Source of the DNA: Escherichia coli | GTDB lineage: Bacteria; Pseudomonadota; Gammaproteobacteria; Enterobacterales; Enterobacteriaceae | Strand: one strand, 5' to 3' | DNA: 64,000 bases | Assembly (NCBI RefSeq): GCF_050920415.1 | Contig: NZ_CP169309.1 | Shown here: piece after piece, positions 10,788 to 17,264 of the stretch | Position numbering within the stretch: position 1 is the stretch's first letter | How the letters are laid out: each line of letters starts with the position of its first letter | Notes under the pieces: generated by a model | Seen by the model: only the letters and a program-made list of their open reading frames with translations | What the model was told of the DNA's origin: nothing | Databases searched by the model: none | Made by a program: the position numbers and the translations under genes

Positions 10788-12968
10788 ATGACAACTAAAA
10801 ATATGAATACGCCACCAGGCAGCACTCAGGAGAATGAGATCGATCTGCTTCGTCTGGTCGGCGAGTTATGGGATCACCGTAAGTTTATTATCAGCGTGAC
10901 TGCGTTATTCACGCTGATCGCTGTCGCTTACTCGCTGTTAAGCACGCCAATTTATCAGGCAGATACTCTGGTCCAGGTTGAGCAGAAACAGGGCAACGCC
11001 ATTCTCAGCGGCCTGAGCGATATGATCCCTAACTCATCGCCCGAGTCAGCACCGGAGATCCAACTGCTGCAATCGCGCATGATTCTCGGTAAAACCATTG
11101 CTGAACTGAATCTGCGCGACATAGTTGAGCAAAAGTATTTTCCGATTGTGGGTCGCGGCTGGGCGAGATTAACCAAAGAGAAACCAGGTGAGCTGGCGAT
11201 CAGTTGGATGCACATTCCACAACTGAATGGCCAGGATCAACAACTGACACTCACAGTTGGGGAAAACGGCCACTATACGCTGGAAGGTGAAGGGTTCACC
11301 GTCAATGGTATGGTCGGCCAGCGTCTGGAAAAAGACGGCGTTGCTCTGACTATCGCGGACATTAAGGCCAAACCAGGAACGCAGTTTGTCCTGAGCCAGC
11401 GTACCGAACTGGAAGCGATTAACGCGTTGCAGGAAACCTTTACCGTTAGCGAACGCAGTAAAGAAAGCGGGATGCTGGAACTTACCATGACCGGTGATGA
11501 TCCCCAGTTGATTACTCGTATTCTGAACAGCATCGCTAACAACTATTTGCAACAGAATATCGCTCGCCAGGCGGCGCAGGATTCACAAAGCCTTGAATTC
11601 TTACAGCGCCAGTTGCCAGAAGTGCGCAGCGAGCTGGACCAGGCGGAAGAAAAACTCAACGTTTATCGCCAGCAGCGCGATTCGGTTGACCTTAACCTGG
11701 AAGCCAAAGCCGTTCTTGAGCAGATTGTTAACGTTGATAATCAACTCAATGAGCTGACCTTCCGCGAGGCCGAGATCTCCCAGCTGTATAAGAAAGATCA
11801 CCCAACTTATCGTGCGCTGCTGGAAAAACGCCAGACGCTGGAGCAAGAACGCAAACGCCTGAATAAGCGGGTATCGGCAATGCCTTCCACTCAACAGGAA
11901 GTATTGCGTTTAAGCCGTGACGTAGAAGCGGGCCGTGCGGTATATCTGCAATTACTTAACCGCCAGCAGGAGTTGAGTATTTCGAAATCCAGTGCGATTG
12001 GTAACGTGCGGATTATCGACCCGGCAGTCACTCAGCCGCAGCCAGTAAAACCGAAAAAAGCGTTGAATGTGGTGCTTGGTTTTATTCTTGGCCTGTTTAT
12101 TTCGGTGGGTGCCGTGCTGGCGCGTGCGATGTTGCGTCGTGGTGTAGAAGCACCGGAACAACTGGAAGAGCACGGCATCAGCGTTTATGCCACTATCCCG
12201 ATGTCCGAGTGGCTGGATAAGCGTACCCGTCTGCGTAAGAAAAATTTATTTTCTAATCAGCAGCGCCATCGTACTAAAAATATCCCCTTCCTGGCGGTGG
12301 ATAACCCGGCGGATTCTGCTGTGGAAGCCGTACGTGCGCTACGAACCAGTCTGCACTTCGCTATGATGGAGACAGAGAATAACATTCTGATGATCACCGG
12401 TGCGACGCCAGACAGTGGTAAAACGTTCGTCAGTTCAACTCTGGCGGCGGTGATCGCCCAGTCCGATCAAAAAGTGTTATTTATTGATGCTGACTTACGT
12501 CGTGGTTATTCGCATAACCTGTTTACCGTGAGTAATGAACATGGCTTGTCGGAATATCTGGCAGGGAAAGATGAGCTCAACAAAGTGATCCAGCATTTTG
12601 GCAAAGGAGGCTTTGATGTGATTACTCGCGGTCAGGTGCCACCTAACCCGTCTGAACTGCTGATGCGCGATCGGATGCGTCAATTACTGGAATGGGCGAA
12701 CGACCATTACGATCTGGTGATTGTCGATACGCCGCCGATGCTGGCGGTGAGCGATGCTGCGGTCGTGGGGCGCTCTGTCGGCACCAGCCTGCTGGTTGCG
12801 CGTTTTGGCTTGAACACCGCCAAAGAGGTGAGCTTGTCAATGCAGCGTCTGGAACAGGCTGGCGTTAATATTAAAGGCGCAATCCTCAATGGTGTGATTA
12901 AACGCGCCAGCACCGCTTACAGTTATGGCTATAACTATTACGGTTATAGTTACTCCGAGAAAGAGTAA
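10788..12968 (+). CDS. etk: Etk, BY-kinase (Wzc paralog) tyrosine autokinase
   Basis: 726-aa ORF; Walker A GATPDSGKT; C-terminal Tyr cluster YSYGYNYYGYSYSEKE. Confidence 0.88.
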   Translation: MTTKNMNTPPGSTQENEIDLLRLVGELWDHRKFIISVTALFTLIAVAYSLLSTPIYQADTLVQVEQKQGNAILSGLSDMIPNSSPESAPEIQLLQSRMILGKTIAELNLRDIVEQKYFPIVGRGWARLTKEKPGELAISWMHIPQLNGQDQQLTLTVGENGHYTLEGEGFTVNGMVGQRLEKDGVALTIADIKAKPGTQFVLSQRTELEAINALQETFTVSERSKESGMLELTMTGDDPQLITRILNSIANNYLQQNIARQAAQDSQSLEFLQRQLPEVRSELDQAEEKLNVYRQQRDSVDLNLEAKAVLEQIVNVDNQLNELTFREAEISQLYKKDHPTYRALLEKRQTLEQERKRLNKRVSAMPSTQQEVLRLSRDVEAGRAVYLQLLNRQQELSISKSSAIGNVRIIDPAVTQPQPVKPKKALNVVLGFILGLFISVGAVLARAMLRRGVEAPEQLEEHGISVYATIPMSEWLDKRTRLRKKNLFSNQQRHRTKNIPFLAVDNPADSAVEAVRALRTSLHFAMMETENNILMITGATPDSGKTFVSSTLAAVIAQSDQKVLFIDADLRRGYSHNLFTVSNEHGLSEYLAGKDELNKVIQHFGKGGFDVITRGQVPPNPSELLMRDRMRQLLEWANDHYDLVIVDTPPMLAVSDAAVVGRSVGTSLLVARFGLNTAKEVSLSMQRLEQAGVNIKGAILNGVIKRASTAYSYGYNYYGYSYSEKE

Positions 12969-12985
12969 AACTGAAGGTAAGGTGG

Positions 12986-13020
12986 CCGGATGCGGCGTGA
13001 ACGCCTTTTCCGGCCTACGC
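12986..13020. repeat. REP (repetitive extragenic palindromic) element
   Basis: GCCGGATGCGGCGTGAACGCCTTTTCCGGCCTACG matches the REP consensus pattern; lies between convergent etk and appA. Confidence 0.6.
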
Positions 13021-13051
13021 ATCAGACAGTTCTTCGTTTGTCATCAGCTTC

Positions 13052-13083
13052 AGAGCATTCAGGTAACTGAATGCTCTTTTTTT
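13052..13083 (+). terminator. Intrinsic terminator downstream of etk
   Basis: Hairpin AGAGCATTCAG-GTAA-CTGAATGCTCT followed by T7 run. Confidence 0.65.
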
Positions 13084-13088
13084 ATGCA

Positions 13089-14387
13089 TTACAAACTGCA
13101 CGCCGGTATGCGTGCTTCATTCACGATTTGCGTAAAACCGGCCAACGAACACATACCCTGCGCGTTTCGCTCTTCACATCCTGCCAGAGTCAGCTTCACC
13201 TCTCCGGGCGGCGACTTTAATGATAGCGGCGTTTTATCACGCATCTGCTGTAAAGTCTGGAATACCACCGAAACCTGAATCCACTGGCTGTTATCGCTTA
13301 GCCGACGCCAGCGTTCAAACACCAGTTCACCACCTGGCGGCGTGTTATCCGGCTGACCTGGAAGCGTCCAGTTGAGCTCCAGTGCGCCGCCGAGATTTGC
13401 CAGATTAGTATCGTGTCCGGCGATAAACAGCACTGAAGTGGGTAATGTCACACCATACACCTGTTTTTGCGGTGGATGGGGCATCAACGCTGTCATGATC
13501 AAATCCAACAACGGGGTGGCACGACTGCGGGCAACCTCTGGCGTGCGTTGTAGCAAATAAAACTGCGCGTTATGCAGGCTTAGCAAGGTGTTCCACTGGT
13601 GTGAATCGGTGATCCTTCCCCACCCCGGCTCCGGCATTCCCTGTGCTTGTTGCAGGAGAAATATCTCCGTCAGCATTGACGCCAGGCTTACCGCACCGGT
13701 TAATGAGACATTGTCGGCGCTCACCTTGAGTTCCGATGGTAATACCTGCGTTAATGAACAGCTTTCGTCCTGTTTCTCACGGTTAAGGCACAAGTTTGAT
13801 TGTGGGAAATTAAGCACCTGTTCCAGTTCGCGAAACGCCGTTTGCCGATGCCCGGTAAAGTCAGCAATTGACCCTCCTGCCCTGCTGAGGATCGCGTCAG
13901 TCACGTTCGCGTTATCCAGTTGGCAAATGCCAGTTTTTAGAGGATTAAATAACGGATCGGGACTGGACGTATCTGCCTGGGTATGTACGGTTATTGCACA
14001 GTCAGGTGCCAGCCCGGCAGCGAAGGCTTCGCCTGTTTTACGGGTACGCTCGTCGACATCAGCAATAATCGCGACCTGACCAGGCTGCGGGCAGCCCTTT
14101 TTCGCCAGCAATCCGTCAGCCACCAGACGCTGGCGTTGGTAATGTCCGAGATAAGCGATTAGCTCACCACCGCGCGGTGTCAGCCACCCCAGTTTTACCG
14201 GCCATGTTGGCCATGCGTCTGGGGTGACATCCTGCATCAGTTGCGTGGCCTTGGTTGGGGCACGCACACCATGACGACTGACAATCACCACACTTTCCAG
14301 CTTCAGCTCCGGCTCACTCTGAGCGAATGCAGATTGCGGGGTGAACGGAATCAGAAGAGATAAGAATGGGATCAAGATCGCTTTCAT
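13089..14387 (-). CDS. appA: AppA, periplasmic acid phosphatase/phytase
   Basis: MKAILIPFLSLLIPFTPQSAFA signal peptide, histidine acid phosphatase RHGVRAP motif; start at internal Met of ORF. Confidence 0.9.
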   Translation of the reverse strand: MKAILIPFLSLLIPFTPQSAFAQSEPELKLESVVIVSRHGVRAPTKATQLMQDVTPDAWPTWPVKLGWLTPRGGELIAYLGHYQRQRLVADGLLAKKGCPQPGQVAIIADVDERTRKTGEAFAAGLAPDCAITVHTQADTSSPDPLFNPLKTGICQLDNANVTDAILSRAGGSIADFTGHRQTAFRELEQVLNFPQSNLCLNREKQDESCSLTQVLPSELKVSADNVSLTGAVSLASMLTEIFLLQQAQGMPEPGWGRITDSHQWNTLLSLHNAQFYLLQRTPEVARSRATPLLDLIMTALMPHPPQKQVYGVTLPTSVLFIAGHDTNLANLGGALELNWTLPGQPDNTPPGGELVFERWRRLSDNSQWIQVSVVFQTLQQMRDKTPLSLKSPPGEVKLTLAGCEERNAQGMCSLAGFTQIVNEARIPACSL

Positions 14388-14425
14388 CGATATGTTTCCG
14401 CTTTTCATATCCGACATTATTGATT

Positions 14426-14457
14426 GCCTGATGCGACGCTAATGCGCCTCATCAGGC
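14426..14457. repeat. Palindromic REP-like hairpin between appX and appA
   Basis: GCCTGATGCGACGCTAATGCGCCTCATCAGGC, an imperfect palindrome in the intergenic region. Confidence 0.4.
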
Positions 14458-14466
14458 TTACGTTCG

Positions 14467-14559
14467 TTAACTTTTCAGACGCGGGTCCAGCCATACCAAC
14501 ACAAGGGTGGAGAGCGAACACATCAACAAAATGCCGACGAACCAAAGTAAATACCACAT
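14467..14559 (-). CDS. appX: AppX (CbdX), 30-aa cytochrome bd-II accessory peptide
   Basis: Hand translation MWYLLWFVGILLMCSLSTLVLVWLDPRLKS immediately downstream of appB; below ORF track cutoff. Confidence 0.7.
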   Translation of the reverse strand: MWYLLWFVGILLMCSLSTLVLVWLDPRLKS

Positions 14560-14571
14560 TGTTCCTGCTCC

Positions 14572-15708
14572 TTAGTACAGCTCGTTTTCGTTACGGCGGA
14601 GAGTTTCTGTCGTCATGCGCCCCCACATTTTGTAGTAGCTCCAGAGAGTGTAGAGCAACACAATGGGCAAAAATATCAGCACGATTACCAACATAATGCT
14701 CAGCGTCAACTGGCTGGAAGTGCTGTCCCACAACGTCAGGCTGGAGATCGGACTTACGCTCGAAGGCATGACAAAAGGGAACAGCGTGATGCCTGCCGTG
14801 AAAATTACGCCAAATTGCATCAATGACGCCATCAAAAATCCCCATCCCGGGCGACCACGATAAATCGCCATCACCGTCAGCAATGGACAGAAGAACCCCA
14901 GCAGCGGGAAGATCCACAAAACAGGCGATTCGACGAAATTATTCATCCAGGCACCAGGTAGCACTGCCACCAGTTTCATTAACGGGTTGGAAGGACCGTT
15001 CACATCCTGGGCGAGCAGTACAAAGCCATCAATACCGACCCACAGCCAGTAACCCGCCAGTAAAAAGCACAGCATCACCAGTAGAGCAGCACGTTTGGTC
15101 GCCAACTGAGAACGCAGATGAATAACACCAACGGTTTTCAACTGTAACCAAACGCCACCTTGCAAAATCACCATCCCAAGGCTGAGCAAGCCGCACAATA
15201 AAGGGAATGGCGTCAACAGTTGCCAAAAGCTGCCGAGATACTCCACGCGTAATTGTGGTGTGAAGGCAAACGGCACGCCGAGTAACAAGTTGCCGAATAC
15301 GATACCAAAGACGACCGGCGGCACCAGACTGCCGATGACCAGGCCGGCATCCCACATTTTACGCCAGCGTGCATTGGCGATTTTTCCTCGATAATCAAAG
15401 GCCAGCGGGCGGAAGAACAGCGAGCACAGCACCAGGATCATCGCCACATAAAAACCGGAAAACGCTGCTGCATACACTCTGGGCCAGGCGGCAAATAATG
15501 CCCCACCTGCGAGGATTAACCAGACCTGATTGCCTTCCCAGTGCGCGCCAACGCTGTTTATCACTATCCGGCGTTCATCATCATTACGCGCCACCAGCGG
15601 CAGCAGACAGCCGATCCCCATGTCAAATCCATCGGAGATCATAAAGACCACCAGGATCACGCCAATCAGCAGCCACCAGATGAAGCGCAATGTTTCATAA
15701 TCAAACAT
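14572..15708 (-). CDS. appB: Cytochrome bd-II oxidase subunit II
   Basis: 378-aa polytopic membrane protein, CydB-like; follows appC. Confidence 0.9.
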
Positions 15709-15719
15709 GATTTTCTCCT

Positions 15720-17264
15720 TTACCCCTGTTGCTGCGTCGGTTGTTCACTCTGCATCGCGCTCGGCCCCAGACGGGCATATTTCTGCATCAGGTAGACTTC
15801 GGCGATTAAGAACAGGGTGTAAAGCCCTACGATCATGATCAGTGAGAAAGCCAGTTGTCCTGTGGTTAAAGCGGAGTGCGCGGAGTATGTCGGTAAGATG
15901 TCCTGTATCGCCCACGGCTGACGACCAAACTCGGTCATAAACCACCCGGCTTCAATCGCAATCCACGGCAGCGGCAAACTCCAGAGCGCCATTTTCAGTA
16001 CCCAGCGATGCTGGTCGATTTTGCCACGCAGCGTCTGGACAAGCGCAATCAGCATCACCAGTAGCAGCAGAGAACCACAGCCCACCATGATGCGGAAACT
16101 CCAGAATACCGGCGCAACCTGAGGTATCGCGCCACGCATCGCCGCCTGGTACTGTGCAGCTGTGACATGGTTCATATCCGGCGCATAGCGGGAGAGCAAC
16201 ATGCCGTAACCAAGGTCGCCTTCCAGCTCCCGGAATGCCTGCAACACATGCGGCTCACGATTGCCTTGCGATATTTCCTGCATTAACAGCCAGGCCATAC
16301 GTCCGCGTTGCAAGCGTGGGTAGGTTTCAGCCATCAAATTCTTCAGACCCGGCACGGGTTTATCTAATGAGTGAGTGGCGAGGATCCCTAGCAGCGCAGG
16401 AATTTTGATGGCAAAGGCGTTACGCTCTTGATCCTGTTCCGGCCAGGCAACTACATGGAACGGTGCAGGTGCAGGTTCCGTTTGCCACTCCCCTTCCATT
16501 GCCGCCAGTTTTACCGGTTGTACTTGCGCGACTTCATACGCAGAACTGTCTCCGAGTTGCAGCGTACCGATAATCGCCAGAGTACCGAAGACGGAACCGA
16601 TGGCAAACGAGCGTAATGCAACATCGCGCTCCCGTCCGCGCAGTAAATACCAGGCGCTGATCGCCATAATAAACATGGCCCCGGTCACGTAGCCCGCCAT
16701 TACGGTGTGCACAAATTTCACCTGGCTGACCGGGTTAAAGACCAGCTCGCTGAAGCTGGTCATTTCCATACGAAGGGTGTCGATATCAAAATGCGCACCG
16801 GTCGGGTATTGCATCCAACCGTTGGCATTCAATATCCACAACGCAGAGAGATTTGAACCGAACGCCACCAGCCACGTCACCAGCAGGTGCTGGTATTTAT
16901 TCAGCCGTTGCCAGCCGAAGAAGAATAGCCCGACAAAGGTGGATTCGAGGAAGAAGGCCATTAACGCTTCCATTGCCAGCGGTGCACCAAAAATATCGCC
17001 CACATAGTTGGAATAGAATGACCAGTTAGTACCAAACTGAAACTCCATCGTCAGGCCGGTAGCCACGCCAAGAGCAAAGTTGATACCGAAGAGCTTACCC
17101 CAGAAGCGCGTCATATCGCGGTAGATTGTTTTGCCGGTGACCACGTAAATGGTTTCCATGATAGCCAGCAAAAAAATCAGCCCCAGGGTAAGGGGTACAA
17201 ATAAAAAGTGATACAGCGCGGTCAGAGCAAACTGCCAGCGCGATAAATCAATGACATCCCACAT
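15720..17264 (-). CDS. appC: Cytochrome bd-II oxidase subunit I
   Basis: CydA-like sequence ([28 protein letters not shown]...); start chosen at third codon of ORF. Confidence 0.9.

Follow-up and report, generated by a model that had tools for sequence, protein, structure and literature searches.

The window analysed here, a 64-kb stretch of Escherichia coli DNA (64,000 nucleotides), carries the appCBX-appA genes on its minus strand and etk on its plus strand. Genes were called from the list of open reading frames (ORFs) together with the RefSeq annotation of strain MFDS1022581 (NZ_CP169399.1) and of K-12. The region 13000-14700 is 100% identical to MFDS1022581; K-12 and most other strains match it at about 97%. 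The annotation of both K-12 and the identical strain agrees with the gene order and strands that had been read from the sequence beforehand. The features of the locus are listed below; the five genes come from the ORF list and RefSeq.

15720-17264, minus strand: appC, cytochrome bd-II subunit I, which opens the operon (coordinates from the annotated length, 514 aa)
14572-15708, minus strand: appB, cytochrome bd-II subunit II
14467-14559, minus strand: appX (cbdX), 30-aa accessory subunit of cytochrome bd-II
14426-14461, minus strand: REP element, consisting of a 32-nt imperfect palindrome (14426-14457) and the 5' tetranucleotide GTAA (14458-14461)
13089-14387, minus strand: appA, periplasmic acid phosphatase/phytase, distal gene of the operon
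13052-13077, both strands: bidirectional terminator hairpin common to appA (minus) and etk (plus), from folds and terminator scan
12985-13018, plus strand: second REP, GCCGGATG type with 3' CTAC, in the etk 3' UTR before the terminator
10788-12968, plus strand: etk

The start of appA presents three in-frame ATG codons on the minus strand, at 14417, 14408 and 14387, the last being the annotated one. All three are conserved and in frame in the seven Escherichia lineages compared below, with a 4-nt indel just upstream. The signal peptide of AppA is cleaved, so the mature protein does not tell which of them is the true start. An inverted repeat, GAUAUG...CAUAUC (14388-14411, minus strand), flanks the likely ribosome-binding region of appA. 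It is found in the window, in K-12 and in lineage L006, and it is missing in L003, L004, L005 and E. albertii; its absence from four lineages indicates that it is probably without function. The appA allele of the window is rare, as identity of at least 99% over 13000-14700 was found in only 5 of 5419 E. coli genomes, most being about 97% identical. Set against the appX-appA spacer, which is common at the same level of identity (1379 genomes, see below), this rarity suggests that appA is mosaic or recombinant in this strain.

The palindrome at 14426-14457 had been picked out from the sequence as REP-like and placed between appX and appA, and both points hold. The ORFs set the limits of the spacer at the appX stop codon (14467-14469) and the appA ATG at 14387, and the element lies wholly inside these 79 nt, extragenic and just past the 3' end of a gene. 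The stop codon of appX is separated by 9 nt from the stem and by 5 nt from the tetranucleotide, and 38 nt lie between the stem and the appA ATG at 14387. On the plus strand the palindrome reads GCCTGATGCGACGCTAATGCGCCTCATCAGGC; in the sense of the mRNA (minus strand) the element is GUAA-GCCUGAUGAGGCGCAUUAGCGUCGCAUCAGGC. Folded as RNA, which was the check proposed with the original prediction, the mRNA sense forms a stable hairpin in which one A.G mismatch separates an outer stem of 8 bp from an inner stem of 5 bp, capped by a loop of 4 nt. Its energy is -23.8 kcal/mol, compared with -9.5 +/- 2.5 kcal/mol for 200 dinucleotide shuffles, none of which was equally stable (0/200; z -5.7). The plus strand folds less well (-19.5 kcal/mol, z -4.1).

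This palindrome is a bona fide REP repeat, and an ordinary one, of a family of imperfect palindromes of about 30-40 nt that has long been known. It is of the GCCTGATG...CATCAGGC type and matches exactly both arms of the REP consensus, GCC(G/T)GATG and CATC(C/A)GGC. A search of the whole 64-kb window with a variable-gap regular expression built on these arms returned only two true REPs, this one and that at 12985-13014. The window contains no gene for a REP-associated tyrosine transposase (RAYT), the cognate enzyme of the family. The K-12 orthologue occupies the same site with a GTAG flank and differs at three positions of the element, flank included; in the parts of the K-12 record consulted (the version of NC_000913.3 used here), no REP is annotated as a repeat_region. 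At the foot of the hairpin the tetranucleotide is GTAA in the window, GTAG in K-12, L003, L004 and E. albertii, ATAG in E. whittamii and TTAG in E1V33; GTAG is the ancestral flank at the site and one of its bases has decayed in the window strain. In 5425 E. coli genomes the 41-nt element has a median of at least 40 matches per genome, and 5208 records show at least 40, so that the real copy number of the REP lies above 40. This abundance is a second reason to consider that the palindrome exceeds chance. Rfam contains no REP family as such, but it does include naRNA4, a REP-derived RNA family, and both REPs of the window match it below threshold (31.5 and 35.2 bits, the gathering score being 59.5).

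In its anatomy the appX-appA REP does not differ essentially from the intercistronic REPs of E. coli, such as those of malE-malF and hisJ-hisQ. Like them, this imperfect palindrome measures about 35 nt, belongs to a multicopy family, lies outside genes between two members of one operon and forms a strong hairpin without a U-tract. The flanking tetranucleotide of the GTAG/CTAC kind is GTAG in K-12 and GTAA in the copy studied here, which is single rather than clustered.

The mRNA flank on the 3' side of the REP, AAUCAAUAAUG, is A-rich rather than U-rich; as taken in the terminator test it reads AAUCAAUAAUGUCGG. The terminator scan found no GC-rich hairpin followed by a U-tract at 14420-14465 on either strand, and an intrinsic terminator at the REP was rejected for want of both a U-tract and a terminator call. 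A promoter in or beside the REP is likewise unsupported, since a promoter scan of 12900-15000, which reaches sigma-70-like sites and not those of the sigma-S type, made no call on either strand.

The other REP of the window, also part of the original prediction, was located between etk and appA with its coordinates shifted by 1-2 nt (12986-13020 predicted, 12985-13018 found). It consists of GCCGGATGCGGCGTGAACGCCTTTTCCGGC plus CTAC, begins 16 nt past the etk stop codon (12968) and folds at -22.7 kcal/mol. The hairpin at 13052-13077 beyond it has an 11-bp stem with T/A runs on both sides and gives folds of -17.7 and -16.7 kcal/mol. In a published Term-seq table, RNA of the etk strand has a 3' end on this hairpin, at K-12 position 1041921 (minus), and the second REP is thus inside the etk 3' UTR and not past the terminator. 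The corresponding spacer of E. albertii (L008 3850-3935) carries two REPs in opposite orientations, in a cluster-like arrangement, against one in E. coli.

Conservation of the appX-appA REP was followed at two scales. Within the species, coverage of a 103-nt stretch that takes in the spacer reaches 80% or more in 5400 of 5426 complete E. coli genomes. Identity to the window is 99% or higher in 1379 genomes and 95-99%, the K-12 type, in 4033. Across the genus, we compared seven lineages: the window, K-12, the species-level Escherichia representatives L003, L004 and L006, E. whittamii (L005) and E. albertii (L008). Each of the seven has a REP hairpin at this site, with folds of -15.6 to -24.5 kcal/mol. 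By script count the outer eight pairs are standard in every lineage (100% paired), and they include three two-sided changes, C-G to U-A at position 2, U-A to G-C at position 4 and G-C to A-U at position 8. The inner stem and the loop vary freely between lineages, with indels. Such compensation in the outer stem is in keeping with a hairpin that has been maintained; gene conversion by other copies of the REP could give the same changes, and the pattern is therefore not proof of selection at this site.

The distance from the appX stop codon to the stem differs between lineages. It is 9 nt in E. coli (window and K-12), L003 and E. albertii, and 21 nt in L004, L005 and L006; in the fold of L003, pairing extends into the GTAG flank, which brings the distance down to 4 nt. 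The difference corresponds to a 12-nt indel between the appX stop codon and the REP (window 14458-14469; about 2905-2935 in L004-L006). The stop codon itself is TAA in E. coli, L003 and E. albertii and TGA in L004, L005 and L006. In another sequence, L014 (Logan ERR5430165, 1501-2595), the gene call joins appB to part of appA and the appB-etk distance is reduced, which is consistent with a natural deletion of appX, the REP and most of appA.

Among the genomes sampled, linkage of appCBX to appA was seen only in Escherichia; protein searches and contig look-ups placed the AppA homologues of Citrobacter braakii and Kosakonia among unrelated genes. A scan of genome contigs with AppA recovered five loci, all from Escherichia but one. 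The exception, L007, is a 317-bp contig labelled Nocardioides antri whose fragment is 99% identical to E. coli AppA and is almost certainly a contamination of that assembly. In Salmonella enterica (L013 3736-3790) the order is hyaEF-appCBX, then a hairpin with a U-rich tract, then a gdhA-like (glutamate-dehydrogenase-like) gene; this locus has no appA, and no REP was found past appX. The Salmonella hairpin looks like a terminator by eye, although a simple terminator scan makes no call there. It shares with the Escherichia REP its position right after appX and its GC-rich character; in contrast, its sequence is unrelated, it has a U-rich tail and it ends the operon, whereas the Escherichia REP has no U-tract and is followed by appA. 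An appCBX locus of the E. fergusonii type (L012 3650-3815) lies between kch-like and torS-like genes, without appA. Its appX call is 43 aa long because the reading frame continues into a REP-like palindrome (GCCTGATG...ATCAGGC) at the end of the gene and stops at a TGA belonging to that palindrome. The site of the REP is thus the end of the operon in these relatives and the seam to appA in Escherichia.

Expression of the locus could be approached through published RNA-seq of an rpoS mutant overexpressing AppY (PMC10057817, supplementary file 2), from which we computed reads per nucleotide as mean counts divided by gene length:

appC (cbdA): counts 3865, 2792 and 3064; length 1545 nt; 2.1 reads/nt
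appB (cbdB): counts 4559, 5346 and 5609; length 1137 nt; 4.5 reads/nt
appX (cbdX): counts 455, 604 and 690; length 93 nt; 6.3 reads/nt
appA: counts 2949, 3502 and 3787; length 1299 nt; 2.6 reads/nt

According to these counts (PMC10057817), read density climbs from appC to appX and then drops about 2.4-fold into appA, the drop being 2.2-2.5 in all three replicates. Density in appA (2.6) is not below that in appC (2.1), and it is only the appB-appX segment that is over-represented. Such a profile fits a 3'-protected appB-appX decay intermediate superimposed on full-length transcripts; an internal promoter combined with partial termination could give a similar one. Upon overexpression of YdeO, appA was induced less than appC and appB, both on arrays (log10 1.33 against about 1.7) and by RT-qPCR (1.72 against 2.64) (PMC4222967), differences in fold induction that are confounded by basal expression of appA. 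One published Term-seq table lists no 3' end at the appX-appA REP, from cultures in which the app operon was barely expressed, and it gives a single 3' end in this region, the one of the etk strand on the bidirectional hairpin. The app genes are absent from the RepRanger supplements.

Stabilization of upstream mRNA, or differential expression of the distal gene, is the textbook role of REPs located inside operons, and one of the earliest functions to be assigned to them. The original prediction suggested this role for the appX-appA REP. The proposal agrees with the anatomy of the spacer and with the RNA-seq densities, and as a function of this particular locus it is plausible. We regard as probable, with some reserve, that the REP is an intra-operon hairpin which protects the upstream appB-appX RNA and thereby shifts the ratio of oxidase to phytase mRNA. 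A single Escherichia REP copy would have gone to fixation between appX and appA within the appCBXA operon. Upon transcription from the appC promoter, the REP would fold into a stable stem-loop just past appX. RNA polymerase would not be stopped there, because the U-tract is missing, and appA would still be co-transcribed. Once the message had been cut downstream, the hairpin would block 3'-to-5' exonucleases, so that fragments ending at the REP, which hold the appB-appX oxidase part, would outlive the appA part and the ratio of the two mRNAs would shift accordingly. REPs are known to impede 3'-to-5' decay, their degradation requiring RhlB/PNPase or polyadenylation (reviewed in PMC10100675). 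The identity of the REP, its hairpin, its conservation and the absence of terminator and promoter signals were established directly; an exonuclease barrier at this very locus is what we infer.

Several other explanations have to be weighed against such 3' protection. The repeat might be a tolerated selfish or neutral one, probably deposited by a REP-associated transposase and never removed, with no meaningful effect on app expression. We consider this possible but rather unlikely. The abundance of REPs, with at least 40 matches per genome, is in its favour, and the number of REPs in the appA-etk spacer, one in E. coli and two in E. albertii, speaks for turnover without obvious consequence; the decay of GTAG to GTAA in the window and the free variation of the loop and inner stem, indels included, point the same way. 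Yet the site is occupied throughout the genus sample, three double substitutions have left every pair of the outer stem intact, 5400 of the 5426 E. coli genomes carry the element, and the step in read density at the REP suggests some effect on the RNA. Alternatively, the hairpin could act as a translational damper of appX, ribosomes terminating at its stop codon being stalled on the stem, with lower AppX output and rescue by trans-translation, an action that would be compatible with a stabilizing role. Liang, Rudd and Deutscher (2015), as cited in PMC12306157, described REPs within 15 nt (<16 nt) of a stop codon as lowering translation of the upstream gene. The 9 nt between stop and stem in the window, K-12 and E. 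albertii fall within this limit as that citing article gives it (PMC12306157), and to this extent the E. coli and E. albertii elements resemble the damping REPs described there. Unlike those REPs, at least as the same article presents them (PMC12306157), the upstream gene here is a small ORF of 30 codons, and the 12-nt insertion extends the spacing to 21 nt in three Escherichia lineages (L004, L005 and L006), so damping of AppX is not a conserved function of the REP. Specific damping would also have no obvious logic for AppX, which is annotated as an oxidase subunit, and we are doubtful that this explains the element.

Partial attenuation of transcription is a further candidate: the REP would stop some polymerases, in a factor-dependent manner or as a weak intrinsic terminator, and yield fewer appA transcripts. 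Read density would fall between appX and appA in just the same way in that case, and the Salmonella hairpin with its U-rich tract lies at the equivalent place, the end of the operon. Some REP clusters (BIMEs) have been reported to attenuate transcription, but the appX-appA REP is single and not a cluster, and the rise in density from appC to appX would be left unexplained. Attenuation is disfavoured because no U-tract follows the stem, where no terminator was called either, and because the untranslated stretch between the two translated genes, 79 nt, is short and leaves little room for Rho loading; we therefore judge it highly unlikely. The REP might also have a role in the 5' UTR of a transcript carrying appA only, a candidate that depends on appA having its own promoter, as Atlung and Brondsted reportedly found in 1994; such a promoter would also count against the favoured 3' protection. 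There is, lastly, an evolutionary extension of the favoured 3' protection. The REP may be the old 3' end of appCBX, kept as a 'leaky end' when appA arrived downstream in the Escherichia lineage, so that the oxidase message would retain a protected 3' end with read-through into appA, and the 12-nt difference in spacing, by putting the REP within reach of ribosomes at the appX stop codon, would add translational tuning of AppX in E. coli and E. albertii. This scenario is speculative, and we think it improbable as a whole.

Thus, the appX-appA REP is an element of an already known kind, and its operon has long been studied. K-12 and nearly all E. coli genomes carry this copy, whose importance beyond annotation is small. 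Its comparative value is modest and lies in its position, a REP standing where the appCBX operon of Salmonella ends in a terminator-like hairpin and where Escherichia attaches appA. The locus is a possible test case for the effect of a REP on translation of a very small ORF, appX. It also offers a tidy natural case of how a hairpin devoid of a U-tract may set the ratio of an oxidase to a co-transcribed phosphatase.
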